Positions 25,367 to 41,833 are shown, counted from the stretch's first letter. The stretch: DNA of 64,000 nt from an uncultured Alphaproteobacteria bacterium (GCA_944392255.1 CALXVY010000004.1:6766-70765), one strand, 5' to 3'. Notes: a model not told the origin generated them from the sequence alone. Made by a program: numbers and translations.

Positions 25367-26380
25367 TTACCATTCTTTTGTTTTTAGTAATTCGGCAATT
25401 TCTGCGGTTGAAGGAAGCTTGGTCTTATTTTCAAATTCCAAAATTTTCTGTAAATTAAAAATTCTTTTACCCTGAGGGGCACGAGGCGTCGTTTTTCGAT
25501 AAGATGTTTCATAAAATTGATCTACAAAAAAGAAACGATGCGGACATCTCGTCAAATCATAGTCATATTGAGAAGCTTCTTGGAATGCTTTTTTTGCATT
25601 TTCTTTCATATCTTTTGACAGCGTTCCATCTATCGCACTAAATTCCAATTTGTCTATGTCGTTATTTTTGGCGGTTACCTCAGCGGTTGCTATAATTTCA
25701 CCAATATTGCGAACGGCTTTTTGTTTATATAACCCCAGATACTTGCATTTTTGATACCCCCATGAAGCCGGACAATAATATAAATTTAGTGCTTTGTTTG
25801 TTTCATATGTTGTTCCGCATAAACGTACATCTAATTTCTTGTCCATATCGCTGATAAGACCGCCTTCATAACAATAATTTTCATAGTCTTCCACTATATT
25901 CGAAAAATCATCATTAGAATCAATAATGTTTTTAATAAAACCAATGAGTTTCTCAAAAGTTAAATGAATATGTTTTACATTAGGATTTTTAGTTTTAATC
26001 ATATTCTTGATTTCTTCTTTTTTCTTTTCTTTTAGCTCTTGCGGATCTAAGGTCAGAAGAATTTTTTCTCCATTGTTTTGAAAAGAAGATAAATGGTGTT
26101 CCAGTTGTTTGGTTCCAAAATTATTATAAAGTTTTGTTTCTATCACTATCTTAAAATTCGGTTGAAAGATGACCGCATCAGGCACACTATCTTTTGATTT
26201 TTCTTGTAATTTCATACTTAATTCAAAATTTAATGGTTCATATTCTTCTTCTAATATATTCTCTATTAAATTGTAAAATTTGGAAGAAGAATGACTATAA
26301 AGTCTTGAAAATAATAACATAGTATTTGCTGTGCTGACATTTTCTTGAGAATGATATCTTTGAAAGTAATGTATCTCCAT
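25367..26380 (-). CDS. PD-(D/E)xK nuclease-like protein with an unassigned C-terminal domain
   Basis: The motif pattern PDAVIFQ...FKIVIETK fits D...(D/E)xK. It lies tightly after the 90-aa ORF (1-nt gap), within the WYL operon. Confidence 0.5.
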   Translation of the reverse strand: MEIHYFQRYHSQENVSTANTMLLFSRLYSHSSSKFYNLIENILEEEYEPLNFELSMKLQEKSKDSVPDAVIFQPNFKIVIETKLYNNFGTKQLEHHLSSFQNNGEKILLTLDPQELKEKKKEEIKNMIKTKNPNVKHIHLTFEKLIGFIKNIIDSNDDFSNIVEDYENYCYEGGLISDMDKKLDVRLCGTTYETNKALNLYYCPASWGYQKCKYLGLYKQKAVRNIGEIIATAEVTAKNNDIDKLEFSAIDGTLSKDMKENAKKAFQEASQYDYDLTRCPHRFFFVDQFYETSYRKTTPRAPQGKRIFNLQKILEFENKTKLPSTAEIAELLKTKEW

Positions 26381-26654: not shown

Positions 26655-27614
26655 TTATTTTTCCTTATACCAATTTTCCGGTTTGATGACTTTCACATGA
26701 TTGCCCCATGTGTAGAGATGCCAATCCATTTCTAATCTGCCACCGGCTCTGAATTTAACGGTTAATGTTCCGTCCGGATTTTTAGTCATGGTTTGTGTGG
26801 GGTGAAAAATATAGTGAGATGCTTCTTCAGATACTTCTTTAACAAACAACCATTCAACCTCAATTGGCTCTTCGTGATAAGCACCAAATGATTCTTCAGC
26901 GTATTTCTGCAAGTTAAAATCAGGCGAGTTTTCAATTACACTGTTTAATATTTCTACTTCTCGAATATTGCTTAAAATAAAGTTATGAACTTCATTTCCA
27001 AAATATCCATCAGCATGATGAGCAACTAAGTAGTGATTACGCTCACCATAAAGAAAACCATAAGGGTTAAGTATATTGGTACTAATTTTACCGCTGTTCT
27101 TATTGTAATACTTAATTTTAATTTGATGACATTCCAAAATGGCTTGGCGAATCGTAGCGATAATCTTTTCATCTATCACAAGCCTTGGTCCGGGGCGACA
27201 AATAAAGCCTTCAGCTTCAAGCAAGGCTTCGGCATCGGGTTCAATTTTGCGGATTATATCTGGTTTAATGGAGGCTTTTATTTTTGCTATAACTTTATCA
27301 AGAACAAGGCTCTTTTCAACCATTTGCTTATTTCCAAACAACTCTTTAGCTGTTTCCAAAACTGATAATTCTTCAGCGGAAAAGTTTATTAAATCCTTTA
27401 ATGTTCCTTGCGGAATATACCAGCGTTTTTGATTGTTTTCGCAAATAATTTCTTCGGCTTGCGGAAATCGAGTGATAATCATGTCTCGCATACGTTCCGC
27501 CGTGCGGCGCGAAACTTGATATTTTTCAGCAATATCATTTAAGCTGACACCTTCACGGGTGGATTGCATCCAGACGGCTAAATCAAGCAAATCATATGTC
27601 TTTTCGTATGCCAT
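26655..27614 (-). CDS. WYL-domain transcriptional regulator (BrxR/CapW/PafBC-like: wHTH-WYL-WCX)
   Basis: N-terminal wHTH (VSLNDIAEKYQVSRRTAERMRDMI), a WYL/Sm-like core (IKIKYYNKNSGKISTNILNPYGFLYGERNHYLVAHH) and a C-terminal WCX-like domain. Confidence 0.85.
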   Translation of the reverse strand: MAYEKTYDLLDLAVWMQSTREGVSLNDIAEKYQVSRRTAERMRDMIITRFPQAEEIICENNQKRWYIPQGTLKDLINFSAEELSVLETAKELFGNKQMVEKSLVLDKVIAKIKASIKPDIIRKIEPDAEALLEAEGFICRPGPRLVIDEKIIATIRQAILECHQIKIKYYNKNSGKISTNILNPYGFLYGERNHYLVAHHADGYFGNEVHNFILSNIREVEILNSVIENSPDFNLQKYAEESFGAYHEEPIEVEWLFVKEVSEEASHYIFHPTQTMTKNPDGTLTVKFRAGGRLEMDWHLYTWGNHVKVIKPENWYKEK

Positions 27615-27710
27615 TTATTCTCCTTCAACAATCTTTCATAATGCAAGATTACGACAATATTTGTCATGATTGGGTTATATTATAAAAGAGAAATATGAAA
27701 GGAATTATTA

Positions 27711-28916
27711 ATGAAAATTTCAATAAAACGTGGAACTAAGGAAATTGGCGGCTCGGCTGTTGAAATAATTTCGGATAACGGGCAAAGAATTGTAGTTGAT
27801 TTAGGGCTGCCGTTAGATGCGGCCGTTAATTCGCCTGATTTATTACCTGATATTACCGGATTGACACAAAAAACTGGTGATTTGTTAGGACTGCTGATTT
27901 CCCATGCTCATCAAGATCATTATGGCTTGGGCATACATATTGACAAATCTATTCCGGTATATATGAGCAAAGAATCGTATAATATCATGAAAATTGCTCA
28001 CGAGCACAAATTGCCTAATGCTTTTGTTTTTGAAAAAACTGTTTGTTTTGACAATAAAAATACATTTCAAATCGGAGATTTTAACATTACTCCATATTTG
28101 TTTGACCATTCTGCCTATGGTGCCTATGGATTTTTAATTGAGGCTGACGGGCAAAGAGTTTTTTACAGTGGTGATTTTAGGGCCCATGGGCGCAAAAGGA
28201 AGTTATTTTATAAATTTTTGCAAAATCATCCCCAAAATATTGATGTTTTGCTTATGGAAGGTTCTTGTTTGGGACGAGAATCCTCCGAACATTATGAATA
28301 TGAACAAGATTTGGAAGTTAAGTTTTGCAACTTTTGGAAAGAAAGTTCAGGATTGGTTTTAGTTCAGGCGTCGGCACAAAATATTGACCGTATCGTTACC
28401 ATATATCGTGCGGCTAAAAAGTGTAGACGAAGGCTTGTTTTATCCGGATATGCCGGGCATATTTTATGGGGAACTAAAAATCCTAATTTACCGAACTTCA
28501 CATGGTCAGATGTTAAAAAATTTTCAACTAAGCCGCAAAAATCTCATGAAATCGGCATTGATGATATTTTAGAGAATCCTCAGAAATTTGTTATTCTGCT
28601 TGATTATCACATTAGACAAGAACTAAAAAAGCATAATGCCGTTAATGAAACAACGGCTTATGCTTATTCTATGTGGAGTGGTTATAAAGAAAAATATCAG
28701 AAATGGCTAAATTTTTTAGCTACTAAAAATGCCAAAGTTCAAGATATTCATACCTCTGGGCACGCGGATATTCCGGCTCTCAAAAAATTTGTTGCCAGCC
28801 TTAAGCCTAAGATAGTTGTTCCCATCCATACATTTTGTCCGCAAGAATTTAAGCAAATGTTTAATAATACCATTTGCTTAAACGATGGAGATATTTTTGA
28901 GCTATCCAGCAAATAA
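27711..28916 (+). CDS. MBL-fold metallo-hydrolase, beta-CASP-like nuclease
   Basis: HAHQDHYG (HxHxDH), FDHS, SGDF, LLMEGS and the C-terminal HTSGHA. Divergent from the WYL regulator. Confidence 0.8.
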   Translation: MKISIKRGTKEIGGSAVEIISDNGQRIVVDLGLPLDAAVNSPDLLPDITGLTQKTGDLLGLLISHAHQDHYGLGIHIDKSIPVYMSKESYNIMKIAHEHKLPNAFVFEKTVCFDNKNTFQIGDFNITPYLFDHSAYGAYGFLIEADGQRVFYSGDFRAHGRKRKLFYKFLQNHPQNIDVLLMEGSCLGRESSEHYEYEQDLEVKFCNFWKESSGLVLVQASAQNIDRIVTIYRAAKKCRRRLVLSGYAGHILWGTKNPNLPNFTWSDVKKFSTKPQKSHEIGIDDILENPQKFVILLDYHIRQELKKHNAVNETTAYAYSMWSGYKEKYQKWLNFLATKNAKVQDIHTSGHADIPALKKFVASLKPKIVVPIHTFCPQEFKQMFNNTICLNDGDIFELSSK

Positions 28917-29903
28917 ATCACTGTTAATTGATGTGATTTTATTTTTAGCTTCATCATAGGCAAACGTGATATATTTAAATCTTAACACATCTTGACCAAG
29001 ATGAACATCTTGAGGTTCTGATGTGATTTGATACTCACCTTTAGGAACAGCAATGCATACATTTATGGTTAGAGAATCAGGTAAATCGCTCTGATATCCA
29101 AATATTTCGTACCATTTTTTGCCTTTCTCAGGGTCTGAGCGGAGCAGTTCTCTTAAAAAGACGGCATAAGTTAAACCTTGCCCCCTAATAATGTGTGCTT
29201 GTAGTGCATTTTTTATAAAGTCTTTTTTTAGCTCTATTACACAAAGGTGGCTTTTCCCGTCTTGTTTAACTCGGGCCAAAATATCTATTCCGCCGGCACG
29301 AGCAGACTTTGACTGTCTCACTTTTTTTCCTGATGCGGACAGCACAGTTGGCATTTGAAAAGCCAATTGGCCATCGCATAATCTAACGGGTTGTATGTTG
29401 CATAATGTTTTGTCTTTAGAAATTTTCTTAGAAAATTCTTCAATTAAGGAACTTTCAAAAAGATGTTCAACTTGATTTTTTTTCTTTATATCTTGGCTGA
29501 AGTATTTTCTGAATTCGGCAGCTTCCGGTGAATTCCACTCACAAATAAGGGGCTTATTCCACCCAAAATATGTATCATTAGTCTTATCTAATTTTTTATT
29601 GGAGTATAATATTAATTTATTTTGCTTAATCTTTAAATAGGCCACACTTTGACCTTTATAGCGCAGATTAATTCCTTTACCACTGTTAATATCGCCAATA
29701 CTGGTATATAGGTTGAGATTTTTCACTTTGTGAAAACTTTTTCTAATTGTTTTTATATGATTTTCTGTTGTTTTGTCTTGAAGAGTTGTTGCATATTTTT
29801 CAAATCGGGTTTTCCAATCATCATTTTTCTGAAGCCATTTTTGGATTGTCTCAGCAATCTGTTGCAGATTAGATATGTTTCTTAAATCTATGCTGTCAGT
29901 CAT
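28902..29903 (-). CDS. Hypothetical protein with C-terminal PD-(D/E)xK nuclease-like motif
   Basis: GGIDILARV...HLCVIELKKD fits D...ExK. A GGAGA RBS sits in the 12-nt gap after the AAA+ gene. Confidence 0.5.
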   Translation of the reverse strand: MTDSIDLRNISNLQQIAETIQKWLQKNDDWKTRFEKYATTLQDKTTENHIKTIRKSFHKVKNLNLYTSIGDINSGKGINLRYKGQSVAYLKIKQNKLILYSNKKLDKTNDTYFGWNKPLICEWNSPEAAEFRKYFSQDIKKKNQVEHLFESSLIEEFSKKISKDKTLCNIQPVRLCDGQLAFQMPTVLSASGKKVRQSKSARAGGIDILARVKQDGKSHLCVIELKKDFIKNALQAHIIRGQGLTYAVFLRELLRSDPEKGKKWYEIFGYQSDLPDSLTINVCIAVPKGEYQITSEPQDVHLGQDVLRFKYITFAYDEAKNKITSINSDLFAG

Positions 29904-29915
29904 TATATATTCTCC

Positions 29916-31934
29916 TTATAAAAAGCCAATTTTATGCTGGAAGGGCGCCTTGTTTAATTGCTCGGCCTCAAGCATTTTTATCAACTCTGCTTTATTATCT
30001 AAAAGTCCTAGAATTTCTGCTTTTTGTCTGACCACCACAAAATCTCCGGGAGCTAAAGAATTGAGATATGACAAGTCTACATTAGAAAAATTAAAAAAAT
30101 GCTTAAATGCCTTACTTGATTGCTCTGCTGTCATATAATTATATCCAACTTTGAAAGTGAAACGACGTAGACTGGCTTTGTCGAGGCTATCCATTAAATT
30201 TGTGGTACAGATAAAAGGATAGGGGTAACTTTCCATTTGGGTTAGCATCTCATTAACTTGAGTTATCTCCCATGAGCGAACGGCACTGCTCCTATCTTGC
30301 AAAAAGCTATCAGCTTCATCAAAAATCAAAACGGCTTGATTTTCTCTCCCTTCATTAAAAGAATCGGCAATATTTTGCTCTGTTCCTCCGACCCACATGG
30401 ATAATAAATCGGAGCATTTCTTCTTGATAACCGGCATTTCAAGTGTTTGAGCTAAATATTCTCCATAGGCGGATTTTCCGGTGCCTGAGGCTCCATATAA
30501 ACATAAGGAAAAATTGCGTTGCGATAGTTGTTTAATCCGTTGAGCCAACAAGCTTAAATCTGTATCCGTATTGAGTAATTGTGGATTAAACTCAATCGGA
30601 GTTTTAGGTTTGGGAGGCGTATATCGACCGTTGTTATATGCTTTTTGCATGGCAGTTAGGCTTTGTTTGACCTCAGGCAAGCCACCATCAGCTAACTTGG
30701 CGGCCTTTACCGCTGTTGCGATAAAAGACGGAGATAACTGGTATTGAACGGCAAATTCCTCGGCTGTTTTTTTATCTGAGGGCAAATGGTGAGCTTTTAA
30801 GCTTTTCTGCCACATCTCTATGCGGGTTTTTAAATTGGGTTTGCTGAAATTAACCGCAAAGCTAAATCGGCGCAAATAGGCTTTATCTATATCATTGATA
30901 GAATTGATAATCCAAATAGCCGGAGTAAGATTATTTTCCAGAAGTCTATTGATATATAGCTTATTATTGTCTTTTTTGCGACAAAACAATAAGTTTTCTG
31001 CTTCTAAAAAATCATCGGCTTCATCAATCAACAAACACGAGTTCTCATCTTTTGATAAGATGGAATAGGCCAGATTGAGAGTTTCTTTGCGCGAATCATC
31101 TTCAAATTTTTCACCTACGGTATACAATGCTGCTTTGATTTTATGCGTTAAGGTTTTCGCAAATTCGGTTTTGCCGGTTCCGGGTTCGCCATAAAAAAGC
31201 AAATTTACACCTTTTTCTTTATTTTTTATGGCCTTACTTAAAATACGTGCACAGATGTTTTTTTCTTGGAGAAAAGAAAAATCGTTCCAGGATAAACCGG
31301 CAACACATTTGGGTCCTAATATAATATTTTTTATATCTTGCGTATTATTTATATTTTGAGACAATATTTTTACACTTAAATCTGAGACACTAACATCACC
31401 ATTATATTCATATTCTATCAATCCTAAGCGGGAAAGAGAGGAATTTTTATCTGATATTTCTTCTATTTTATGTTGGCTTTCTAACAGAAAAAAAGATGTG
31501 TTGTTTTTTAATTTATTATTGCGTCCGCCGACTTCACGGTTGAAATCATCAAAATTATCATCTGTCTTGACACGTACCCAGAAACCAAAAAGTTTTTGTT
31601 CTTCAACTGTCAGATTCAACAATTTTGCTAAATGATGAAGACGTTTTTCTAAAATAGAATCAGGGCTATTTTGCAGCATAGCGACTTTTTTATTAAGGGC
31701 TGTAACAAATCTTTTACCAATTTCAAAAGCTTGTTTTTTCTTGGTACGCAATATGTCTTTGAAATCAGTGCCATTTTCTTCTTCAATTTTACTTGTCCAT
31801 AAAAATTTGATAATATTTTTGCCATAATTGTCATGCCAATCGTAAATATTCGATAAATGTTCTTGAAAAAAACTTTTGTTTTTTGAGGCATTTAGCAAAT
31901 AATAAAGCATTTTATATTGTTCATATTTTTCCAT
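29916..31934 (-). CDS. Double AAA+ ATPase (two classical AAA modules) with ~240 aa unassigned N-terminal domain
   Basis: Module 1: Walker A GEPGTGKTE, Walker B LLIDEADDF, Arg-finger region AYLRRFSF. Module 2: GASGTGKSA, LIFDEADSF, ASLRRFTF. Confidence 0.85.
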   Translation of the reverse strand: MEKYEQYKMLYYLLNASKNKSFFQEHLSNIYDWHDNYGKNIIKFLWTSKIEEENGTDFKDILRTKKKQAFEIGKRFVTALNKKVAMLQNSPDSILEKRLHHLAKLLNLTVEEQKLFGFWVRVKTDDNFDDFNREVGGRNNKLKNNTSFFLLESQHKIEEISDKNSSLSRLGLIEYEYNGDVSVSDLSVKILSQNINNTQDIKNIILGPKCVAGLSWNDFSFLQEKNICARILSKAIKNKEKGVNLLFYGEPGTGKTEFAKTLTHKIKAALYTVGEKFEDDSRKETLNLAYSILSKDENSCLLIDEADDFLEAENLLFCRKKDNNKLYINRLLENNLTPAIWIINSINDIDKAYLRRFSFAVNFSKPNLKTRIEMWQKSLKAHHLPSDKKTAEEFAVQYQLSPSFIATAVKAAKLADGGLPEVKQSLTAMQKAYNNGRYTPPKPKTPIEFNPQLLNTDTDLSLLAQRIKQLSQRNFSLCLYGASGTGKSAYGEYLAQTLEMPVIKKKCSDLLSMWVGGTEQNIADSFNEGRENQAVLIFDEADSFLQDRSSAVRSWEITQVNEMLTQMESYPYPFICTTNLMDSLDKASLRRFTFKVGYNYMTAEQSSKAFKHFFNFSNVDLSYLNSLAPGDFVVVRQKAEILGLLDNKAELIKMLEAEQLNKAPFQHKIGFL

Positions 31935-32015
31935 AAAAACATCTCCTTTACATTCAATGTTTTTATTATAAATGATTGATGCGTCAATTTTTGTCGTGCA
32001 AAGGTAGAAAGTAAG

Positions 32016-32351
32016 TTATTTCCTTTTTAACTTAAATGAATCTAAAAATTTTAGAAGGTCTTGTTGAGAGGATTCATCTAATAAAGATATTTTATTAATT
32101 AGGTTCTCATTGGTGTTTACAATGGCTTCGGCTTTTTCGGATATAAGTTGTACGAGATCAATATCCAAGGCATATAGGATTTTATATAAAGTATAAGCTC
32201 TTGGGTTTTGTTTGCGATTTTCAATCAGATTAACGGAAGAATAATCAGCGTTGCTTAATTCTGCTAATTTTTCACAGGAAAGTTTTTTATTATTGCGTTG
32301 TTTTCTTATAATCTTACCGATTTCATTAAGAAAATCTTCTTCATTTAACAT
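32016..32351 (-). CDS. XRE-family helix-turn-helix regulator
   Basis: HTH_3-like segment IRKQRNNKKLSCEKLAELSNADYSSVNLIENRKQNP. Confidence 0.8.
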   Translation of the reverse strand: MLNEEDFLNEIGKIIRKQRNNKKLSCEKLAELSNADYSSVNLIENRKQNPRAYTLYKILYALDIDLVQLISEKAEAIVNTNENLINKISLLDESSQQDLLKFLDSFKLKRK

Positions 32352-32547
32352 TGTGTAAATCCCATAAAATTTATATGAGATTATACAATTGCTGTTTTTC
32401 TTATCTATTGTGTGAAGCCAATAAAATATTGTTGACTACTGCTTTATTTCAATTACTCTGATTATATAGCAGATTTTGATGTGACATATTTTGACATGGG
32501 CAAGGTTTATTATTTTGAATGAGTTACACTAAATAAAGGAGATTATC

Positions 32548-33330
32548 ATGCGTAGAGATTTAACATTATATAAGTTAGAGTTTCCAGATCAGGATAAGTT
32601 AGAAGAATATTGGAATAAAAGATATTCAAGCGACTTTCACACCGAGGTTTTGGGAAGAATTAACAATCGCTCAAATAGCTTAAAATCTAAATGTGGTAAA
32701 ATTTATGAGATTAATGATGAAATTCTAAAAGATATTTTTGGAAGCCACAAAAATAATAATGAAAGATGCCTTGGTTGGACATACTTTAAGGTTAAACTGT
32801 TAAATGATTTTTACAGCACAGGAATCCAAGATATTTATACGGTTGTTGAAGATATGATAAAAATCAAAAATCTTGATGAAAATATTAAAAATGGCGATTT
32901 TCAAGCTGTAAACGAAATAAGAGATATTTTTAAGAAAAACAAAGAAAACAAAAACAGCCGTGATATTTATTCTTTTGCCACTAAATTCTGCCATTTTTCA
33001 AATCCGGACAAGTTTTCTATTTATGATCGTTATGTCGCTTATTTATTAAAGGACTATATTATAAAATGGAAAGATAAATTTACTTCCGCCTTTATTAAAT
33101 ATAATGAAACATCTAAAGAAAATAAGATTAAGATTGATAAACCGACAGCAAGTGCACTTTTAACCGCTATGAGAGATTATACATTCTTTATGAATGTGGT
33201 TGATTTGTTTATGAGTAATTGCAAAATTTCTAAACGAAATTCAAGAGCTAAAGTAGACAATTACCTTTGGTTAGCGGGAATGATGAAATATCGTGAAGGA
33301 AGTAAAGTTGCACAAGATTATAAAAATTAA
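32548..33330 (+). CDS. Hypothetical protein
   Basis: 260-aa ORF with a GGAG RBS, divergent from the XRE gene. The motif SFATKFCHFSNPDKFSIYDRYV vaguely recalls OGG-fold proteins of conflict systems; this is unverified. Confidence 0.5.
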   Translation: MRRDLTLYKLEFPDQDKLEEYWNKRYSSDFHTEVLGRINNRSNSLKSKCGKIYEINDEILKDIFGSHKNNNERCLGWTYFKVKLLNDFYSTGIQDIYTVVEDMIKIKNLDENIKNGDFQAVNEIRDIFKKNKENKNSRDIYSFATKFCHFSNPDKFSIYDRYVAYLLKDYIIKWKDKFTSAFIKYNETSKENKIKIDKPTASALLTAMRDYTFFMNVVDLFMSNCKISKRNSRAKVDNYLWLAGMMKYREGSKVAQDYKN

Positions 33331-33677: not shown

Positions 33678-33854
33678 TAGAATATCCTTTGTTTTCTCAG
33701 CATATAAAAGAAATTTGCTTATCCCTATATCCATTTATCAAAAACATTCAAAATCTCGTTATATGTGAAGGAAATGCAAGCTATTTTAGACTATTAATAA
33801 AATATTTTATTTTTAATGGTATTGCTTTATCATAAAAGGGCAAAGGAGCATCCT

Positions 33855-34766
33855 ATGGAAAAGCAAATAATAGAAGTTTCGAACGATGGATTTTCTTTAT
33901 TTTTACATAGAGGTTTTATAGTTATCGAGAACAAAAATATTCCGATAGAAACAAAAATTCCATTGGATAATATTTTGTCTTTAGTGATTAGTGCTAATGA
34001 TTTGATACTTTCTAAAAATGTAATAAATGCCATAACAGAACAAGGGGCAAATATTATTTGTTGTGGTAAAAATTATGTTCCTTCTTCAATTATAATTCCT
34101 TGCGAGGGGCATTGGCTAGTCGCCTCAAGAGTTCAAAATCAAATAGAATGTTCTAAACCTTTACAGAAAAATTTATGGAAGAGTATTATTCAAAATAAAA
34201 TTTATAACCAATCTAAAATTTTAGAGTTCTTTTTTCCCAATCATAGTAATATTGCACGACTTAAACAATTAGCCAAGAATACGCTCAGCAATGATGTGCG
34301 AAATAATGAAGGGTTGGCTGCTTCAATTTATTTCAAATCGTTATTTGGTAAGAATTTTGTACGAGATAGATTAAGCGGCGACGTTAATATTTTATTGAAC
34401 TATGCTTACATAGTTCTTAGAGCTATGGTTATAAGAGCAATTTATGGTAATGGATTATTACCTTTTTTAGGATTAAAGCATTGTGCTAAAACCAACACAT
34501 TTCCTTTGGCTGATGACTTAATGGAACCGTTTAGACCGTGGGCTGACAAATTAGTATTTGAGGAAATAAATAGACTTGTTAATATTCAAGATATTGAATT
34601 GACACCGGAAATAAAACGAAGATTAACTGGACTGATTTCTATTCCCGTCAAGACCGGCAAGGGTTGTGTTTCGTTAAATGATGCTGTGTTTGATTTTGTA
34701 GGAAGTTTGGTCGTCAGTTTTGAAGATAAAAAAGTTAAATTAAAATATCCAGAGTTTGAAGATTAA
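33855..34766 (+). CDS. cas1: CRISPR-associated endonuclease Cas1 (type II)
   Basis: Cas1 hallmarks NEGLAASIYFKSLFG, NILLNYAYIVLRAMV and DDLMEPFRPWAD. AAGGAG RBS before the Met at 33855 (the ORF track opens at 33816). Confidence 0.9.
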   Translation: MEKQIIEVSNDGFSLFLHRGFIVIENKNIPIETKIPLDNILSLVISANDLILSKNVINAITEQGANIICCGKNYVPSSIIIPCEGHWLVASRVQNQIECSKPLQKNLWKSIIQNKIYNQSKILEFFFPNHSNIARLKQLAKNTLSNDVRNNEGLAASIYFKSLFGKNFVRDRLSGDVNILLNYAYIVLRAMVIRAIYGNGLLPFLGLKHCAKTNTFPLADDLMEPFRPWADKLVFEEINRLVNIQDIELTPEIKRRLTGLISIPVKTGKGCVSLNDAVFDFVGSLVVSFEDKKVKLKYPEFED

Positions 34767-35081: not shown

Positions 35082-35447
35082 GTTATAGTTGACCGTCTAA
35101 TTAATCTCTGATACGTTAAGCAGTGCAACTAGGCTCTGACGGCTTAAGTTATAGTTGACCGTCTAATTAATCTCTGATACGTTAAAGCAACTGGAGAGAG
35201 AAAAGATAGAACAGTTATAGTTGACCGTCTAATTAATCTCTGATACGTTCTTCCAAAAATGCTGTGTTCAATAGTTCTTGTTATAGTTGACCGTCTAATT
35301 AATCTCTGATACGTTATCTTTGACAACAAATCAGCTGAAATGGCAGTTATAGTTGACCGTCTAATTAATCTCTGATACGTTCCGTAAGCTGGCAGGAATA
35401 TTCGGACTTGAGTTATAGTTGACCGTCTAATTAATCTCTGATACGTT
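35082..35447 (+). CRISPR. Type II-C CRISPR array: 6 identical 36-nt repeats and 5 spacers of 30 nt
   Basis: Repeat GTTATAGTTGACCGTCTAATTAATCTCTGATACGTT at 35082, 35148, 35214, 35280, 35346 and 35412. Plus-strand orientation is inferred from the GTTATAG 5' end and from tracrRNA complementarity. Confidence 0.95.
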
Positions 35448-35458
35448 AGATAATAGAT

Positions 35459-35492
35459 CAAAGCCTTGAAATAACTAGTTTTCAAGGCTTTG
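35459..35492. terminator. 12-bp hairpin between the array end and the cas2 stop (convergent terminator candidate)
   Basis: Stem caaagccttgaa / ttcaaggctttg with a 10-nt loop. There is no strong U-tract on either side. Confidence 0.45.
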
Positions 35493-35522: not shown

Positions 35523-35885
35523 CTAAAAAAGCAATAATTGTCCATTTTTTTCTCGAATTTCTTCTTCATTATCTTCAAAATTCTTACCTAAATAGTTCTC
35601 TGTCATTAGATATTGTTTATCGGTAATATAAATAAACGATACCGAAGAATTATCGGGTATGAATTTGGATAACTTTTTAGTTAAAGTTTGCCCAACCGAC
35701 AAACTCTTAACCGGTTTGATGTAAACGGAAAACTGCTTCATCATAAAACCTTCATCAATCAGGAGATTGCGAAAGCGAGTGGCTTTGCGCATCTCGGTTC
35801 GAGTTCTGACTGGTATGTCAAACATACAGATTATCCACATCATTGACCAGCAGGTTAAGGTTTCACGCCGCTTTTGTCGAGCCAT
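35523..35885 (-). CDS. cas2: CRISPR-associated endoribonuclease Cas2
   Basis: Ferredoxin-like Cas2 N-terminus MWIICMFDIP...FRNLLIDEGFMMKQFSVY. The true start may be the Met-Met at 35843, in which case there is no overlap with cas9. Confidence 0.85.
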   Translation of the reverse strand: MARQKRRETLTCWSMMWIICMFDIPVRTRTEMRKATRFRNLLIDEGFMMKQFSVYIKPVKSLSVGQTLTKKLSKFIPDNSSVSFIYITDKQYLMTENYLGKNFEDNEEEIREKNGQLLLF

Positions 35886-38800
35886 TGCTCAATACCTTGT
35901 GTTTCTTTTTTATTTTCCCAAATGGGGTTAATTCTATTTTTCTCACTCTATATTTGCATAACCATTGTAAGCTCTTATCTTCTAATAGAACTGGAAGCAT
36001 ATACTTCGGTTTGCTATTAGCATTTTCTCCATTTCTTGCATCATTTGATAGTTTTATTCCTAATTGGTTTCTTCCAAATCTAAACTTAACAATTTCAGCA
36101 ATACAACGTTGTTTATCTGTATATTCTTTCCATTCTTCTGGGGTATTCAATTCAAGCAAATCACCTTGCTGCACAGACCATATGATTTTTCCTCCATCAT
36201 GTTGCCATTGTGGAACAAAATCTTTTTGGTTTATGTCAAAAAGCCTAATTACTTCGCCATTGATTTTTTCATTTTGCTCATAAACTTCCAAACAATAATT
36301 ATTCCGCCCTTCATACGCAACGCCATGCTTGGGGATATAAACTAATGAAGAATTGTTTTCATAACTCCTAAATTTATCGCCTTTCCATAATTTTTTCTCT
36401 TGAATGAGATAAAAAGCCCTAGTTAAAATACGGCTTTCGGTGATGGAAATTTCTTTTTTTCCTTCAGATGCGGCTTTTTCGTTTTCAGCAATCAGAATTT
36501 GCTCGGCTGTATTTGCATAAAGTTCAAAGTCTTTGACTAATTGAGCTTGTTTGGTTTTGTCTTTGGCAATATGTTCATTCCACTCATCTTTGATAGAATC
36601 GGGAATGAGCAATTTATTTAAGTCTTTCATTGACTTAACAACTTGTAATATCTTGCGTGAATAAACCGTGATTAAGAATTTGCTGTCATCCGGGTTTATG
36701 CATAAAACCGTTCTACCGGTTTCTTTATGGAGTTTTCCAGCTTTGCTGTGTTCGGGCTTGTGCGAAACGTTAACCTTACTTAATACTTCAATCACTTGGC
36801 GGCGAAATTCTCCGACTGACTCAATACTTGTTAACGGAAGAGGTACATGCTGATGCGGTAAATCGATTTCATTAGCCATATGCTGGATCAGGGAACGATT
36901 CATACAAGCAACAGTTATGGCATCCATGGCGTGATGACGATGGTCAATTCTGGGCTTTGATACCCATTCTTTGTTCTTAGTTTTATCAAAAAATCTCCAT
37001 TTGCCGTCAACATTAGGTTGTTCTATTCCTTCAATAACTTCTCCGGTATCTTGCTCAACCCAATAAGGAGAACAATTTACATATCTTGGAATATCCAATC
37101 CCATGAGATCATATTCCAAACCTTCCAAATTCCAACAACGACGCATATGAGCGGTTTGAGCTCCTTTAACCGGAAGAATCCGATTATGAATCACTTCTTC
37201 ACTATCTGGGCTATCAACAATTGCTCTTAAATATCGTGCTGCCATTTTGGATACATAACGTGTATCTGTCAGATAACGCGTAGTTTCTTCTACATCTCCT
37301 TCATCTTCGAATTTTTCGCGAGCGTCGGCCTCAAAACGCCATGCTTTGGCAGGTGTTCTCTCTCGGGCATTTTTCAGAATTTCTCGGATAAGTTCTTCTG
37401 GTTTTTGACCTTTGCTAACAAAGTAATCATAGGCAAAATCATTCCCTTTAGCATTATTATCATTGCGGTTTACCAGGCAAAGGTTGTTATAGGTATCCGT
37501 TCCGCCTTTAGCTTGAGGAATAATATGTTCTATTTCAAAACCGGAAAAATTACGGGGAATGCTAACCGTTGGGTCGTAGGCATCTTTCCATCCTTGTTCC
37601 TTGGCAAGTTTATATTTTAAGATATTTTGATAATTGATGAAAAGTTTATGGTCTTTTAAGTATTTTTTTGCTTCTTCGTTAAGTTTTTCATTGTTTTTTT
37701 GCTTTTGTTCTTCTTGTTTTTTCTTCTTGGTTGACATACCAACATCTCGACCAAGCTCAATGTTAATGTCATAAGGTTTGCCGTAAATGCGAATTATATC
37801 ATTAATCACCAAGCGGAGTTGATTTAGAATCATATGAACTGACGGATTGGCTATTTTTCCCCATTTTATTTCATCGGGGTTAAGATTTTTGTTGTTTTTG
37901 ACCATTAATGGTGGAAGCGGTTGTGTATCAGCCTGCAAAATCTCGCCATAATATGGAAGTTCTTGACATTTACCTTGAGTTTTGCGCGCAATCTCTTCCG
38001 AGGCAATAAAACGGGCATCATTCTTGGCTAAATCATCGGTTATTTCTCGATGCGTAATGACTTGTTCTTTTAATTTTTCTAAAATAATTTTCGAGGCACT
38101 TTCGCCCAACATTCCTCGTCCTTTGGGAAGTTTGGTCAGCAGTTTGCCGATTTCTTTATCATCATTAATTTTTAAAATCGGCTTAAGATGATTAATCAAT
38201 TCATCCTCGCTGTATAAACGTCCGTTTTTATCATTCGAATTTATCGGATTAGCTAAAAAATCAACAAATTTTGCCAATTCTTCATCTGAGAGTTTTTGTA
38301 TATATTCTATTTCTGAAAATTCTGGACGTGAGTATAAATAAGCCTTGATATTTTTATCATCAAGTAAAGATATTTTTTGTTGAGCTGAAAGACCTAATAA
38401 TTTTTTGATAGCTGATTTTCCTGCATTTTTGCCTTGCAGTAAAAGCTCGTTGATGATTTTATCTCTTTCTTCTAAAGTCAGCTTGCGTTTATTGGTGTCG
38501 CTTAATACACGGATATTATTTACTTCTTCATAAATACGTCTTAATTCTGATAATGGATGTGCTTTCAGCAGTCTGTCTTCATCTTTGAAATAAATACATT
38601 TTCCGGTAGCATAAGGAGCTGGTGGACGCTCATAAAATAAGATATTATAAATTTCTTTTTTCAAACCTTCTTTTTGCATTTGAGTAAAATATTGAGCCTG
38701 CGTATCCCAGATTTGATTAAATTCATCTTTTACCAGATAGCGGGGAATTGCATAATCAACAATATGTTGTTTTAAGGCGTGTTCTTTTTGTCGTATTATT

Positions 38801-39375
38801 CTTTTGTTAGCGTTTGTTTTTACTCCATTTTTATCTTTTTCGTATCCTTCGCAAATTCGTTTGTAAAAAAACTCACCAATTGTTTTAGAATTTGTTTCTT
38901 TTAAATGCTCGGACATCATATCGTAAGCTGATTTTTTAGCTTTGGATTTTTCACCTTCTTCTAAAATTTCTTCTTGTAACTCTTCAGAGGCAGTTACGAA
39001 TCCGGCACCACGGTGCTTGGCTATATGTAGGATGGCTCGTCCTATATAATTAGGGTTAGACAGCCTACCATTTAATGCGTCATTGCGAATCTTATAAGGA
39101 GATTTTGCACGTAAATGCCCTGTTCCTTCTGGGGTATTATTTACCCAAAGATGGTTTTCAAAAAGTTTTTGCGCTAATAATTCTAATCGTTGGCGGGTGC
39201 GGACCTGATTTTTGCGCATTGTTCGTTTGAGGCGACGTTCTTCAGCTCCTTCAGAAACATTAAAAATACGAACTCCGGCATCGATAATCTTTTGAGGATT
39301 GTTATAATCATCTAACTCAATAATTGCGCTACCGATGGAGCCAACACCCAAATCTAAACCCAAACGATACTTCAT
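35863..39375 (-). CDS. cas9: Cas9 (type II-C), ~1170 aa
   Basis: RuvC-I LGLDLGVGSIGSA, RuvC-II DINIELGRD, HNH EIEHIIPQAKGGTDTYNNLCLVNRNDNNAKGN and RuvC-III HHAMDAITVA. An AAGGAG RBS favours the Met at 39375 (the track opens at 39381). Confidence 0.95.
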   Translation of the reverse strand: MKYRLGLDLGVGSIGSAIIELDDYNNPQKIIDAGVRIFNVSEGAEERRLKRTMRKNQVRTRQRLELLAQKLFENHLWVNNTPEGTGHLRAKSPYKIRNDALNGRLSNPNYIGRAILHIAKHRGAGFVTASEELQEEILEEGEKSKAKKSAYDMMSEHLKETNSKTIGEFFYKRICEGYEKDKNGVKTNANKRIIRQKEHALKQHIVDYAIPRYLVKDEFNQIWDTQAQYFTQMQKEGLKKEIYNILFYERPPAPYATGKCIYFKDEDRLLKAHPLSELRRIYEEVNNIRVLSDTNKRKLTLEERDKIINELLLQGKNAGKSAIKKLLGLSAQQKISLLDDKNIKAYLYSRPEFSEIEYIQKLSDEELAKFVDFLANPINSNDKNGRLYSEDELINHLKPILKINDDKEIGKLLTKLPKGRGMLGESASKIILEKLKEQVITHREITDDLAKNDARFIASEEIARKTQGKCQELPYYGEILQADTQPLPPLMVKNNKNLNPDEIKWGKIANPSVHMILNQLRLVINDIIRIYGKPYDINIELGRDVGMSTKKKKQEEQKQKNNEKLNEEAKKYLKDHKLFINYQNILKYKLAKEQGWKDAYDPTVSIPRNFSGFEIEHIIPQAKGGTDTYNNLCLVNRNDNNAKGNDFAYDYFVSKGQKPEELIREILKNARERTPAKAWRFEADAREKFEDEGDVEETTRYLTDTRYVSKMAARYLRAIVDSPDSEEVIHNRILPVKGAQTAHMRRCWNLEGLEYDLMGLDIPRYVNCSPYWVEQDTGEVIEGIEQPNVDGKWRFFDKTKNKEWVSKPRIDHRHHAMDAITVACMNRSLIQHMANEIDLPHQHVPLPLTSIESVGEFRRQVIEVLSKVNVSHKPEHSKAGKLHKETGRTVLCINPDDSKFLITVYSRKILQVVKSMKDLNKLLIPDSIKDEWNEHIAKDKTKQAQLVKDFELYANTAEQILIAENEKAASEGKKEISITESRILTRAFYLIQEKKLWKGDKFRSYENNSSLVYIPKHGVAYEGRNNYCLEVYEQNEKINGEVIRLFDINQKDFVPQWQHDGGKIIWSVQQGDLLELNTPEEWKEYTDKQRCIAEIVKFRFGRNQLGIKLSNDARNGENANSKPKYMLPVLLEDKSLQWLCKYRVRKIELTPFGKIKKKHKVLSNGSTKAA

Positions 39376-39471
39376 AAACATCTCCTTGTCTTATTGTTGT
39401 GCAACCATGTATAAAACAACTTATAATACTGCTCTTGACTTTTCAATCAAAATATTCTTATATTATAATAA

Positions 39472-39574
39472 TATATGTTTTGATTTTTTCAGAGATTAAT
39501 TAGACGGTCAATACATATATAATAAGGCTTTATGCCGCAAAATGAGGGGGTGAGTGATTGCCCCCATTATTTTT
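39472..39574 (+). ncRNA. tracrRNA (5' end approximate)
   Basis: The 22-nt anti-repeat cagagattaattagacggtcaa (39490-39511) is perfectly complementary to repeat positions 8-29. It is followed by a nexus-like AAGGCUUUAUGCCG and a terminator ggggg-N10-ccccc plus U-tract (39546-39574). Candidate promoter TTGACT(39435)-18-TATATT(39459). Confidence 0.7.
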
Positions 39575-40679
39575 ATATGTTATCAAAAATAATCGGATAT
39601 TTCCGAAGGAATTTTTGGAAGAGCAGGGTTGCTTCTTTGTTATCTAAAGTTTTGGGAAGTTTGAGGGTAACGCTATCGGTATTAACTTGTTTGCCAGAAG
39701 TATCAATAATGCAATATTTGTTATTTACGGCAACAAAAGCTTGCCCATTATAAAATTGTCCGATCTTATCAAAAATTATCGGAATGATGATTTTTCCGGT
39801 ATTGTCCATATATCCCCAGTGATTATGTTGTGAAGTCGGTTTAAGCTCTTCTTGGTTGTTTGCTTCTGTAGAAATATTAATACTTTTATCGGGAAGACCT
39901 TTAACTCGGTATTTACCATCTTCATCTCTGAATATGACTTTTCCGTTGAGAGTTATATCTTCAACCGACTTATTGGCAAAATTGATTATTTCCTTGCCTT
40001 GATAGTCAATAATTGTCTGCCAAGAATAGGCTTTGCCTAAATATTCAAAACTCCTTTTTATGCACCAATATTTACCGTTAGACCAATAGTCCTCAATATT
40101 TTCCAGATTAAAATTATATTGGTTTTGTAAGTGTTTTATTCGACATTTTCTTAAATTTAACAGTTTGTTTTTGGCATAATCGGCAATATTTGAGTTATCG
40201 GTTGTTAAATTTACCCAATTTTCTACAGGTGTATTGCTTTTGATTATGGCATTGTAGAAGTCATCAAACAGCTTTTTATCGAATGTATGTTTCAGGCAAA
40301 ATTCTTCAAAACCATGCTGATTTACATATTCTTTCAAATCTTCCGGTACAAATGCGGCAAGATTATACATATAATTAAATAAGTCGTATTTCTTATATTT
40401 AAGTAGAACGGAGATATATTCAGGAGAGTGAGGCTTGTTTCTGGGTAAAAGTTTCAAAATTCGTGAAATAGCAGCTTTGGACAGCAGGTTACTTTCACGT
40501 TCTAATTTGTTTTTACCAAGAGTTATACGCATTGGCTTTGCAAGGGTAAATTTTATATAATAAAAAAAGGGTAAAGCAAATTCCAGACAACAACAGTAAT
40601 CGCCGTTTGCCTGTTTTTGACTGTAAACTTTTATCCATTTGTGAATATATAAATCCTTATATAAATGTTTTTTAGTCAT
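39573..40679 (-). CDS. WG-repeat-containing hypothetical protein
   Basis: The C-terminal segment HWGYMDNTGKIIIPIIFDKIGQFYNGQAFVAVNNKYCIIDTSGKQV matches the WG beta-repeat pattern. Confidence 0.5.
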   Translation of the reverse strand: MTKKHLYKDLYIHKWIKVYSQKQANGDYCCCLEFALPFFYYIKFTLAKPMRITLGKNKLERESNLLSKAAISRILKLLPRNKPHSPEYISVLLKYKKYDLFNYMYNLAAFVPEDLKEYVNQHGFEEFCLKHTFDKKLFDDFYNAIIKSNTPVENWVNLTTDNSNIADYAKNKLLNLRKCRIKHLQNQYNFNLENIEDYWSNGKYWCIKRSFEYLGKAYSWQTIIDYQGKEIINFANKSVEDITLNGKVIFRDEDGKYRVKGLPDKSINISTEANNQEELKPTSQHNHWGYMDNTGKIIIPIIFDKIGQFYNGQAFVAVNNKYCIIDTSGKQVNTDSVTLKLPKTLDNKEATLLFQKFLRKYPIIFDNI

Positions 40680-40744
40680 CGGTGCCTCTTAGGTTTATTA
40701 TTTAATATAGCAACACTCCACGACAAAATATGACGCATTTAAGT

Positions 40745-41359
40745 TCATATCATTTCAATTATTTTTTTATGAGCTTCGGTATTATACTCAATATATCGTT
40801 GTGTCGTAGCTAGGCTTGAGTGTCCGGCAAGTTGTCTGACGTCATTTATCGTTCCTCCGGCTTGGCTAATCATTTTTGCAGCTTGGGTAATAAAAGTTCT
40901 TCTGCCACTATGAGATGAGCATCCATCCATATTCAGCCCTTTATACAGTAAATAAAAGAAATTAACGATTGCCTGAGCAGACATTTTCTTATCTCTTTCG
41001 GTGGTGATAATATATGAAGATAGGTTTGTGTTTTCTTGTTTTAAGTCTGTTAGCAACTTTTTTAAGTCTTTATGTATTGGGATAATCCGACCGGAATATT
41101 TACCTTTAGAAGCGTTATTCGGTAAATTAATGCTGTCTGATATATAGCCTTCGCTATCACATACCATCGACCATGTGAGTTGGGATATTTCCTTGGCCCT
41201 TAAACCGGCTTTGAAGCTCAGTAAAAACATTATTTTGTTTCTGAGTGGATATCTGGTATTTTCCAAATAGGCTAAGACCATGGTTTGTTGTTTCGCGTTT
41301 AATATTTTTGCTTGTTTTCCTATACCCATAATGTTCTCCAAGTTATTATAATTACACAA
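40745..41359 (-). CDS. Short tyrosine recombinase (catalytic domain only)
   Basis: R (GLRAKEI), H-x-x-R (SHSGRRTF) and H...Y (LAGHSSLATTQRYIEY). At 204 aa it has no core-binding or arm domain. Confidence 0.8.
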   Translation of the reverse strand: MCNYNNLENIMGIGKQAKILNAKQQTMVLAYLENTRYPLRNKIMFLLSFKAGLRAKEISQLTWSMVCDSEGYISDSINLPNNASKGKYSGRIIPIHKDLKKLLTDLKQENTNLSSYIITTERDKKMSAQAIVNFFYLLYKGLNMDGCSSHSGRRTFITQAAKMISQAGGTINDVRQLAGHSSLATTQRYIEYNTEAHKKIIEMI

Positions 41360-41463
41360 TATTTTATATAAATAATAATGACTTTATTTTAACCATCAAC
41401 GGATTTGTTGTTAAAAGCCTTGAAAAATAAGGACTTATTATAAAATATAAAATTTCTAATAAG

Positions 41464-41793
41464 TCAGTATTCATCGGCAAGCATTATGGTTAACACTCGA
41501 TTGGTGCATTCCTCGTTTGCCGGATTGATGCTATAAAACAAGTACTCGGTATCATAATAATCAATTTTCCAAAAAATACGGTTTCCCTTAAAGTCAAATG
41601 CTCCGAAATCGTGTTCTCCATAAGGGTCATTGCTTTTATTAAAAGAATTAAAATTTTGCACCTGTTTAATAATGTTATTCACGTCGTCAGGCGGTAGTAG
41701 AGATATACCCTTGGTAATCATTACTTTGCCGCCTGATAAGCTCGTGCGAAAAGAATCGTTTAATTTTTGTATTTTGAGGTGTTCGTTATTCAT
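41464..41793 (-). CDS. DUF3768-family protein
   Basis: NDPYGEHDFGAFDFKGNRIFWKIDYYD matches my recollection of the DUF3768 signature common on plasmids and ICEs. Confidence 0.65.
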   Translation of the reverse strand: MNNEHLKIQKLNDSFRTSLSGGKVMITKGISLLPPDDVNNIIKQVQNFNSFNKSNDPYGEHDFGAFDFKGNRIFWKIDYYDTEYLFYSINPANEECTNRVLTIMLADEY

Positions 41794-41833
41794 TGTTTAC
41801 TCCATAAAAGAAAGGAGCCCGAAGGTTCCTTAG

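Follow-up and report, generated by a model that had tools for sequence, protein, structure and literature searches.

Introduction

In Caulobacter crescentus, DriD (CCNA_01151) activates a DNA-damage response that is independent of SOS, with a regulon that includes recJ, dnaG and the nuclease gene bapE (PMC9186387, PMC13004042). DriD is itself activated by single-stranded DNA (ssDNA) and binds CGAC-N7-GTCG sites that overlap the -35 region at a fixed distance from the -10 element (PMC12392091, PMC13004042); driD has a bidirectional promoter, from which the protein activates transcription of the divergent gene but not of driD (PMC13004042). The present work concerns five genes (positions 26655-32351) within a stretch of 64,000 nt from an uncultured alphaproteobacterium (GCA_944392255.1, CALXVY010000004.1:6766-70765), this whole stretch being called the window hereafter. 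They encode a DriD-like regulator with a WYL domain (the WYL protein), a nuclease of the metallo-β-lactamase fold (MBL), a 333-residue protein that we call X, an ATPase with two AAA modules, and a small regulator of the XRE type.

Other regulators of the WYL type are found close to genes involved in defence. BrxR and CapW, from BREX and CBASS loci and from defence islands, are repressors and belong to a clade separate from DriD and DdaA (PMC12392091); CapW senses ssDNA (PMC11662680), and DdaA is an activator that controls both damage and anti-phage genes (PMC12392091). Nucleases of the MBL fold are, for their part, established defence effectors (PMC12799240, PMC12642450), and in the trypsin-MBL modules these enzymes are ComEC-like and become active DNases through proteolysis (PMC12799240).

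Organization of the locus

A preliminary description of this DNA had proposed that three minus-strand genes, encoding the XRE regulator, the ATPase and X, form a self-contained operon, and had treated the MBL nuclease and the WYL gene as flanking context only. Comparison with related loci led us to a different unit. With a probability of about one half, we consider that the five genes of 26655-32351 function as one unit, to which a further open reading frame (ORF), ORF260, may belong, and that this unit joins two widespread two-gene modules. The first would comprise an unfoldase of the Cdc48-like tandem-AAA type, with a winged-helix-like unit in its N-domain, and a DriD-family regulator of winged helix-turn-helix (wHTH)-WYL-WCX architecture, and the second a two-enzyme nuclease made of X, a RecB-like PD-(D/E)xK protein, and a β-CASP enzyme of the MBL fold. 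The features concerned are as follows.

26655-27614, minus strand: DriD-family regulator, 319 residues (Pfam WYL, 38.6 bits, and WCX, 28.9 bits; phmmer matches to DriD structures)
27652-27683, plus strand: predicted DriD-type operator CGACAATATTTGTCA, then 11 nt and the -10 element TATTAT, in the divergent WYL/MBL intergenic region (match to the composite motif)
27711-28916, plus strand: β-CASP MBL-fold nuclease, 401 residues (Pfam Lactamase_B_2 and RMMBL; relatives in the PDB)
28902-29903, minus strand: protein X, 333 residues, predicted PD-(D/E)xK nuclease (invariant motifs; structural model)
29916-31934, minus strand: tandem-AAA ATPase, 672 residues (Pfam AAA, 120.8 bits in two stretches)
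31965-31996, minus strand: predicted DriD-type operator CGACAAAAATTGACG, then 11 nt and the -10 element TATAAT, between the XRE stop codon and the ATPase gene
32016-32351, minus strand: XRE regulator resembling restriction-modification C proteins, 111 residues (Pfam HTH_3)
32482-32513, plus strand: predicted DriD-type operator TGACATATTTTGACA, then 11 nt and TATTAT, upstream of ORF260
32548-33330, plus strand: ORF260, 260 residues, unannotated, divergent from the XRE gene

Much of the initial observation was confirmed. The three minus-strand ORFs were recovered at the positions and lengths first given, and their translations contained all eight of the motifs quoted (GEPGTGKTE, LLIDEADDF, LRRFSF, GASGTGKSA, LIFDEADSF, LRRFTF, GGIDILARV and VIELKKD). 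The junction between the ATPase gene and X reads TAA-GGAGAATATATA-ATG, and its 12-nt gap indeed holds the GGAGA predicted as a ribosome-binding site (RBS); at its other end, X is convergent with the MBL gene, the two overlapping by 15 nt at the 3' end of X. The family assignments also stood, with an HTH_3 domain in the 111-residue protein, two PF00004 modules and a Cdc48/p97/VAT-like family profile for the ATPase, and for X a PD-(D/E)xK signature together with the matching α-β-β-β-α-β order in a confident AlphaFold2 (AF2) model. Searches of PADLOC v2.0.0 (PADLOC-DB 2023), NCBIfam, Pfam and PHROGs bore out the absence of a named system, and the presence of Cas1, Cas9 and integrase genes on the flank agreed with a defence-type island.

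By contrast, the grouping of the genes had to be redrawn. The loci compared came from a scan of one genome per species, which yielded 69 X loci from 12 phylum-level groups, in which ORFs were called and searched with the window proteins. The ATPase and X are not co-conserved as a general pair, since the ATPase gene adjoins X in 11 of the 69 X loci and X was present in 2 of 84 AAA loci; the true conserved partners are MBL for X and the WYL protein for the ATPase. The XRE gene cannot be regarded as the head of the operon either, as it is restricted to the closest relatives and lies upstream of the predicted inducible AAA-X promoter. ORF337 (337 residues, 25367-26380, downstream of the WYL gene) was also considered as a member of the system and rejected, as it was not conserved in related loci.

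A DriD-type regulator and its predicted operators

The WYL protein matched the C. crescentus DriD structures 8tp8, 8tpk and 9pfq (phmmer E = 4e-51, residues 1-313 against 5-311), whose identity as DriD is confirmed (PMC10853764, PMC13004042), and was 35% identical to DriD by BLASTP. It displayed a wHTH-WYL-WCX architecture, with Pfam matches to WYL and WCX and a weak match to HTH_11. It thus has in common with DriD a full-length alignment, the same architecture, the half-site spacing and the position at -35, and it also lies, as driD does, at a bidirectional promoter facing a divergent target gene (PMC13004042). The known targets of DriD are didA, bapE, recJ and dnaG, whereas the predicted local targets here are an unfoldase and nucleases. 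Furthermore, driD has neither a tandem-AAA neighbour nor X-MBL, so that the AAA-WYL operon, in which WYL genes of the present kind usually come second, has been left unstudied in the model organism. In C. segnis and C. flavus, a conserved ORF of 114-116 residues with no Pfam domain lies divergent from driD (L166:6574-6924, L167:6582-6926), and its counterpart CCNA_03891 is activated by DriD in C. crescentus (PMC13004042).

Sites of the DriD type were clearly over-represented in the window. CGAC-N7-GTCG, with at most one mismatch, occurred 10 times against 3.55 expected, and the composite motif YGAC-N7-GWCR-N11-TATWWT three times against 0.01 expected; none of 100 shuffled sequences reached 10 or 3, respectively. 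The three composite sites are placed at similar distances from the starts that they precede, namely 27 nt (ATG of the MBL gene), 30 nt (ATG of the ATPase gene) and 34 nt (ORF260). The sequence TTGACG-TATAAT upstream of the ATPase gene was rejected as a normal sigma-70 promoter on account of its 11-nt spacer, a length explained by the apparent -35 being in fact the predicted operator. A generic scan of the window for promoters and terminators gave counts at the shuffled expectation.

This arrangement was conserved in other loci. Before the ATPase gene, 14 distinct loci kept the box, its spacing and the -10 element, among them relatives that are rich in GC and 33-38% identical; the box was perfectly palindromic in L001 and L013. 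Before the MBL gene, L001, L007, L010/L080 and L013 kept box, spacing and TATTAT. A looser composite motif, searched for in 1.98 Mb of loci, gave 45 matches, of which 18 preceded an AAA gene, 8 an MBL gene and 4 a WYL gene. The operator common to AAA-X and MBL leads us to predict one regulon, with the WYL protein as its putative ssDNA-sensing activator.

A comparison with BrxR and CapW is also called for, as they too are WYL factors placed next to nuclease or defence genes that they presumably control. No BrxR or CapW chain was found at E <= 0.01 when the WYL protein was searched against the PDB. The position of the predicted operator over the -35 region suggests activation, unlike the repression exerted by BrxR and CapW.

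Two further genes lie close to these promoters. Among related loci, the XRE gene was present only in L007 and L009; its product matched the PADLOC models HTH_VI, capH and Control_protein, with C.BclI (2b5a) as its nearest PDB relative. We regard the XRE protein as a lineage-specific accessory resembling the controllers of restriction-modification, dispensable and outside the conserved core and circuit. ORF260 had no match in Pfam, NCBIfam, PADLOC or PHROGs, and only L009 had a homologue, preceded by the same box at the same spacing. ORF260 is a possible addition to the regulon or system and lies in a trough of 27% GC (32-34 kb).

A fourth box of the DriD type, the one-mismatch variant CGTCATATTTTGTCG, was found at 40721-40735 (minus-strand reading), followed by 11 nt, TATATT and an RBS. 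It precedes a WG-repeat (PF14903) gene (39573-40679) located between Cas9 and the integrase, of which a homologue occupies the same place in L001. This box suggests that the predicted local WYL regulon extends beyond the cassette.

Pairing of the ATPase with the regulator

The survey of the ATPase covered 82 non-duplicate loci, 28 of them on contigs too short to tell, which left 54 informative loci. A WYL gene was present in 47 of these (87%), immediately downstream (within 300 nt) in 34, downstream with an insert of 0.8-4.6 kb in 7 and upstream in 6; the remaining 7 had full flanks and no WYL gene. A variety of other genes accompanied this pair. GmrSD/DUF262 proteins were encoded between or beside the two genes, as was, in 12 loci, a DUF2779/Cas4-like nuclease; other neighbours were a UvrD plus PD-(D/E)xK protein, metallophosphoesterases, short proteins resembling the α subunit of DNA polymerase III (PolIIIα-like) and an ADP-ribosylglycohydrolase. 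AAA-WYL pairs were also found on annotated plasmids, with PLD, HEPN, PD-(D/E)xK, macro and RtcB genes.

The PolIIIα-like proteins (~450-790 residues) have a palm and fingers, with no PHP domain detected (L040:7556-9193, L042:6592-8034, L072:6516-7958, L095:10032-11900, L101:8349-10733), and they recur both in Bacteroidota X-MBL operons and beside AAA-WYL pairs. An AAA-WYL operon was also observed at 8671-11865 of L168 (MT835507.1), an unverified 'Bacteriophage sp.' entry of 57% GC from a faecal scaffold. This entry contains at least four perfect CGACA-N5-TGTCG palindromes over 13 kb (at 1437, 8519, 14402 and 14428), which suggests, from the sequence, a DriD-type regulon with several promoters on a mobile element.

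Within the same survey, MBL occurred in 8 AAA loci and X in 2. When the genes do meet, their order varies. It is AAA-X / MBL / WYL in the alphaproteobacterial clade, AAA-X-MBL in a termite-gut contig (L102, with an AAA-X gap of 12 nt), MBL-X-AAA-WYL in a Desulfovibrionaceae genome (L020) and MBL / AAA / WYL in L079, and in a Treponema genome (L071) X precedes a gene for a 740-residue AAA protein. AAA and X thus recombine repeatedly, always with MBL and/or WYL, and a rearranged order with the same membership constitutes good evidence that the four genes are functionally coupled.

Protein X and its partner nuclease

X belongs to a compact and unannotated family. Word-seeded searching gave 186 matches, each labelled "hypothetical", and an exhaustive profile search of 1.84 billion representatives gave 837 clusters at 50% identity, nearly all of them full-length (320-345 residues). 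Residues E146, H147, G204, G205, D207, E224, K226, Q242 and Y246 were invariant in sets of 35 and 55 homologues; as the genome scan for X had been seeded with the peptide [GA]GGIDILAR, the invariance of that stretch is partly a matter of ascertainment, the other residues lying outside the seed. They form the set E...G-x-h-D...(D/E)-x-K...Q-x-x-x-Y, which we take to be that of the RecB-type PD-(D/E)xK nucleases. The AF2 model of X was of high confidence (predicted local distance difference test, pLDDT, 92; predicted template-modelling score, pTM, 0.90) and placed these motifs on a helix (145-157), two strands (208-214 and 217-225) and a second helix (233-255), the order of the motif-bearing elements being the canonical α-β-β-β-α-β.

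Comparisons at a distance were less conclusive. The best Foldseek matches of the model, both non-significant and with low TM-scores, were Dna2 (E = 0.06) and a viral PD-(D/E)xK protein (E = 0.045), and the weak matches as a whole were mostly to PD-(D/E)xK proteins (Dna2, Exo5, FokI, MunI, BamHI, AddB, HamA and viral proteins). Foldseek returned no match at E <= 0.001 in the PDB or BFVD, and a profile search of PDB sequences with the X alignment no match at E <= 10. X had no match in Pfam, NCBIfam or PHROGs, only a non-significant one in PADLOC (PDC-S11, E = 0.008), and none by tblastn among annotated plasmids and phages. The RecB family (RecB, AddB, Cas4, Dna2, Exo5) is the closest known group; it has the motif set and the modelled core order of X and supplies its best, non-significant, Foldseek matches; unlike its members, X lacks a significant match, conserved Fe-S cysteines and any helicase fusion, and carries a unique N-domain of 140 residues. 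This N-domain (residues 1 to about 140) matched nothing, while the C-terminal part constitutes the predicted nuclease core. The assignment of X as a nuclease is well supported by its motifs and predicted topology, although not proven.

Some members of the family are longer. An N-terminal extension of ~200 residues was observed in P0040, P0242, P0243, P0249, P0264, P0271 and L041:9380-10972, and C-terminal extensions in a few proteins (P0251, P0260). In seven members of ~420-595 residues, neither the X domain nor the extensions of ~100-270 residues had a match in Pfam.

The MBL enzyme has the complete set of residues expected of a β-CASP nuclease. In 55 X-linked MBL proteins, the MBL motifs 1-4 (D30, H65xH67xD69H70, H133 and D155) and the β-CASP motifs A (E183), B (H351) and C (H373) were 96-100% conserved. 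Its Pfam matches, Lactamase_B_2 (43 bits) and RMMBL (34 bits), exceeded their cut-offs, and its nearest solved relatives were the uncharacterised 2az4 (E = 5.6e-21) and RNase J. In NCBIfam, it remained below the level of the RNase J families (TIGR00649, 68.3 bits against a cut-off of 400; RnjA, 65.4 against 820). With RNase J and the EF2904-like hydrolases it shares all the β-CASP motifs, including the histidine of motif C, and the RMMBL tail; unlike RNase J, it has 401 residues, lacks the RNase J C-terminal domain and is tied genomically to X. The histidine at motif C makes RNA a possible substrate of X-MBL.

Two other kinships were considered for this enzyme and rejected. The β-CASP exonuclease associated with DNA ligase in damage responses, which presumably sits in an Lhr/ligase/PdeM operon and for which we assume that NCBIfam has a model, was absent among the NCBIfam matches of MBL at E <= 0.01, and the locus contains neither a ligase nor a DEXH helicase. 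The trypsin-MBL, HamMAB and canu modules resemble the present case in that a separately encoded and tightly partnered MBL effector has been acquired repeatedly. Unlike those protease-gated enzymes, the MBL studied here is a β-CASP protein (RNase J/CPSF73-like) whose partner is a PD-(D/E)xK protein; kinship with trypsin-MBL or HamM was thus set aside, the enzyme being RNase J-like and the locus having no trypsin-like protease.

The association of X with MBL was strong and wide. In 42 of the 69 X loci, the two genes lay within 150 nt of each other, and these 42 came from at least 8 phyla; a further 14 loci had them no more than 6 kb apart, and 13 had no MBL, 6 of these being truncated contigs. 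Among the 42 adjacent pairs, 25 were X-MBL on the same strand, 9 MBL-X on the same strand, 7 convergent and 1 fused, the latter being a single X-MBL protein of 714 residues (L033); P0253 is probably a second fusion, in the order MBL-X. The pair was also adjacent in the three IMG/VR loci (3/3). The identity matrices of X and MBL were correlated (Mantel r = 0.56 for 55 pairs, a value reached in 0 of 2000 permutations), a correlation to which shared phylogeny contributes. Their linkage and fusion make it most likely that the two proteins work together, as a complex or composite nuclease; X would then be the obligate partner of a β-CASP nuclease. In distant relatives of X, the gene kept at its side is MBL and not the ATPase.

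In other loci, X stands beside restriction-modification genes, AbiV-HEPN, restriction endonuclease (REase) genes and insertion sequence (IS) elements. In Bacteroidota, an operon encoding a PolIIIα-like protein, a 180-residue protein, X, MBL and a metallophosphoesterase adjoins a divergent WYL gene.

The tandem-AAA ATPase

The ATPase consists of an N-domain (1 to ~235) and two AAA modules, D1 (~243-380) and D2 (~476-600). An alignment of 24 homologues, the most distant at 26% identity, showed no variation in the two Walker A motifs, the two Walker B motifs (D304-E305 and D539-E540), the sensor-1 residues N344 and N579 or the arginine pairs R355-R356 and R590-R591, and the pore loop of D2, SMWVGxxE, is of the canonical aromatic-hydrophobic-glycine type. 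A search of the PDB with the family profile placed Cdc48, p97 and VAT at the top, with both modules matched. These sequence features identify the ATPase as a predicted substrate-threading unfoldase of the Cdc48/p97/VAT type. It shares tandem classical AAA modules with those proteins, but its N-domain is not the Cdc48 double-psi barrel: the model (pLDDT 92.7) is a helical bundle ending in a winged-helix-like unit, with weak Foldseek matches to MarR/DtxR winged helices. The family is large (more than 1,500 matches; 584 confirmed metagenomic relatives), and the window protein matches PHROG 10401 over its full length.

Among defence proteins, its best match in PADLOC and NCBIfam was IetA, likewise a classical-clade AAA protein that serves as a defence component. 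The PADLOC IetA models gave 90-117 bits (best 116.6 bits, over profile positions 121-269 of 374) and NF042959 (IteA_antiphage) 98.2 bits against a cut-off of 510, in three stretches, all within the AAA cores. In its ~370 residues, IetA has one AAA module, whereas the present ATPase has two and an N-domain of 235 residues, and no peptidase domain that could represent the S8 protease of the IetS type was found in any ORF from 21524 to 44005. Membership of IetAS (Gao_Iet) was rejected, as the family score was not reached and the protease partner was missing. TRIP13, which acts with HORMA proteins in CBASS, shows that an AAA remodeller can regulate an immune effector in bacteria, with the difference that neither a HORMA nor an adaptor gene is present here.

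Proposed function

A working model in four steps can be put forward. Firstly, ssDNA arising from DNA damage or from phage or plasmid replication would bind the WYL domain, by analogy with DriD. Secondly, the regulator would bind the CGAC-N7-GTCG boxes that replace the -35 element and would activate the promoters of MBL, AAA-X and ORF260. Thirdly, X and MBL, whose active sites are intact and which occur as natural fusions, would assemble and degrade nucleic acid. Finally, and this is the least supported step, the ATPase might license, reset or target the nucleases or the regulator. Such an action of an unfoldase on nucleases or on a regulator is speculative; TRIP13 in CBASS, and the proteasomal control of PafBC in mycobacteria, are precedents.

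As to the biological role, we lean with about even confidence to an inducible defence against mobile elements, or a conflict with them (possibly abortive), a role that appears somewhat likelier than DNA repair. Defence is favoured by the patchy, cross-phylum distribution of X-MBL, by the presence of AAA-WYL on plasmids and on a putative phage, by the swapping of nucleases, by the neighbours of X (restriction-modification, AbiV-HEPN, REase and IS) and by the Cas1, Cas9 and integrase genes around the cassette in the window. In a broader proposal, which we offer tentatively as possible rather than probable, the ATPase and the DriD-like WYL protein, a pair found on chromosomes, on plasmids and on a putative phage, would be the constant part of a widespread and hitherto undescribed modular system set off by ssDNA, in which the unfoldase licenses interchangeable nuclease cargos; X and MBL would be a new two-subunit effector, and X would found a PD-(D/E)xK family of some 800 clusters.

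Several observations weigh against this reading. It is by homology, at 35% identity, that we assign a function to the operators, ssDNA as ligand and an activating rather than a repressing action to the regulator. An ATPase was looked for in the driD operon of Caulobacter, and none was present in the C. segnis and C. flavus loci. The ATPase and X-MBL are each far commoner without the other, which implies that the two nucleases can do without the ATPase. Neither sequence nor structure links X significantly to a characterised nuclease, and a PADLOC census of 144 neighbours of X gave scattered WYL, mad2/3, PDC-S02 and PDC-S48 matches and no recurrent known system. DriD and the nearest characterised relatives of the regulator control damage responses and not defence; the UvrD-PD-(D/E)xK, PolIIIα-like, metallophosphoesterase, RecB-like and β-CASP neighbours are equally typical of repair or DNA-end processing; and the synteny of the alphaproteobacterial clade, maintained over a long divergence (~50% identity between the ATPases), looks more vertical than mobile.

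Alternative explanations

The last three points lead to an alternative that we judge unlikely and yet take seriously, because the WYL protein is a homologue of DriD: the locus would be a module for the repair or tolerance of DNA damage, a local DriD regulon that processes damaged ends or cross-links and is not immune in nature. MBL would then be an exonuclease of the SNM1/Artemis type and X a RecB-like end-processing nuclease, and the ATPase would free DNA of proteins stalled on it or cross-linked to it, a task that Cdc48/p97 performs during repair in eukaryotes. The match to an SOS-independent damage-response activator (PMC9186387, PMC13004042), the long-term synteny of the cassette, the recurrent repair-type neighbours (UvrD+PDDEXK_1, metallophosphoesterase, PolIIIα-like and DUF2779/Cas4-like) and the divergent WYL gene beside the Bacteroidota operon are all consistent with such a role. 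However, X-MBL is patchy across the 12 phylum-level groups and lies beside IS elements, integrases, restriction-modification and Abi genes, and the ATPase-WYL pair occurs on plasmids and a putative phage. Moreover, the nucleases beside AAA-WYL are freely swapped, including GmrSD (a type IV restriction family), PLD and HEPN, which is a signature of conflict systems and argues against repair. The motif C histidine of MBL, of the RNase J/CPSF73 type, also differs from the valine that the SNM1/Artemis DNA nucleases have at this position. Lastly, the relationship of the regulator to DriD is compatible with defence, since DdaA controls both damage and anti-phage genes (PMC12392091).

Another explanation is that AAA-WYL is a self-contained stress module and X-MBL an unrelated nuclease pair, the two being independent neighbours merely co-located in an island. 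The pairs are indeed mostly apart, in accordance with the counts given above (X in 2/84 AAA loci, AAA in 11/69 X loci), and in 34 AAA loci the WYL gene follows directly with no nuclease between. Against this, the same predicted operator, with the same spacing, is found at the AAA-X and MBL promoters in the window and in its relatives; AAA and X are co-directional and 12-13 nt apart in two unrelated lineages (the window and L001; L102); the four genes come together again, differently arranged, in Alphaproteobacteria, Desulfovibrionaceae and the termite-gut lineage; and MBL lies near the ATPase without X in 8/84 AAA loci. We consider independent neighbours to be improbable in the light of these observations.

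The original proposal of a self-contained XRE/tandem-AAA/PD-(D/E)xK defence system, with the ATPase as sensor and the nuclease as effector, is very unlikely. It drew on the co-directional genes, on the 12-nt AAA-X junction with its RBS and on the lack of a matching named system. However, the XRE gene is missing from other loci that retain AAA-X-MBL-WYL, a predicted inducible promoter separates it from the ATPase gene, X is nearly always found with MBL where the flanks are complete (and is fused to it in L033), and 87% of the informative loci give the ATPase a WYL partner. The faintest prospect is a diverged member of a named system (IetAS, an effector module of the trypsin-MBL/HamMAB type, or a system described after 2023), to which the PADLOC IetA scores of the ATPase (90-117 bits) and the known defence role of MBL nucleases (PMC12799240, PMC12642450) might point, and which is opposed by IetA matches limited to the AAA cores (IteA, 98 bits against 510), by the lack of an S8 or trypsin-like protease in the locus, by the ComEC-like and protease-gated nature of the known defence MBLs where the one studied here is β-CASP, and by the literature searched, in which neither pairing is described.

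These literature searches, on which the exclusion of systems named after 2023 depends, included the combinations WYL+AAA+MBL, β-CASP+anti-phage, Cdc48-like+WYL and DUF2779+WYL. The five-gene unit that we favour thus follows a familiar logic, that of an ATPase and nucleases under WYL control, with parts and pairings that are absent from the libraries and literature searched. As far as sequence comparison can tell, X is a new protein family, and the tandem-AAA gene with its DriD-like WYL partner a new and widespread operon.

Genomic surroundings

Beyond ORF260, Cas1 (33816-34766, plus strand) and Cas9 (35863-39381, minus strand) are convergent and not co-directional. Between them lies an ORF of 113 residues (35144-35485, minus strand) with no Pfam match, of which four tandem homologues are found in L009 (3503-5008). 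An integrase (204 residues) and a DUF3631 protein (723 residues) are encoded at 40745-44005, which suggests that an integrative element borders the island formed by Cas9, the WG-repeat gene and the cassette. Farther on, the region 50000-56000 stands out from the remainder of the window (~35% GC) by its very low GC content (26-30%) and its strongly positive GC skew, and may be foreign DNA.

Implications

If the proposed reading is correct, X, as a new and sharply defined family, would provide a two-enzyme nuclease of a composition not described before. Activators of the DriD type have so far been known only for a handful of damage genes in Caulobacter; across Proteobacteria, they would prove to be connected with a Cdc48-like unfoldase from their own operon, which would offer a handle on their targets beyond the model organism and on the role of bacterial tandem-AAA proteins. 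The box, the 11-nt spacing and the -10 hexamer would constitute a sequence rule able to predict local DriD regulons in uncultured bacteria. In the broader proposal made above, DriD-type damage circuitry would be linked directly to innate immunity against mobile elements. The same operator-promoter rule would make the question of defence or repair directly testable.

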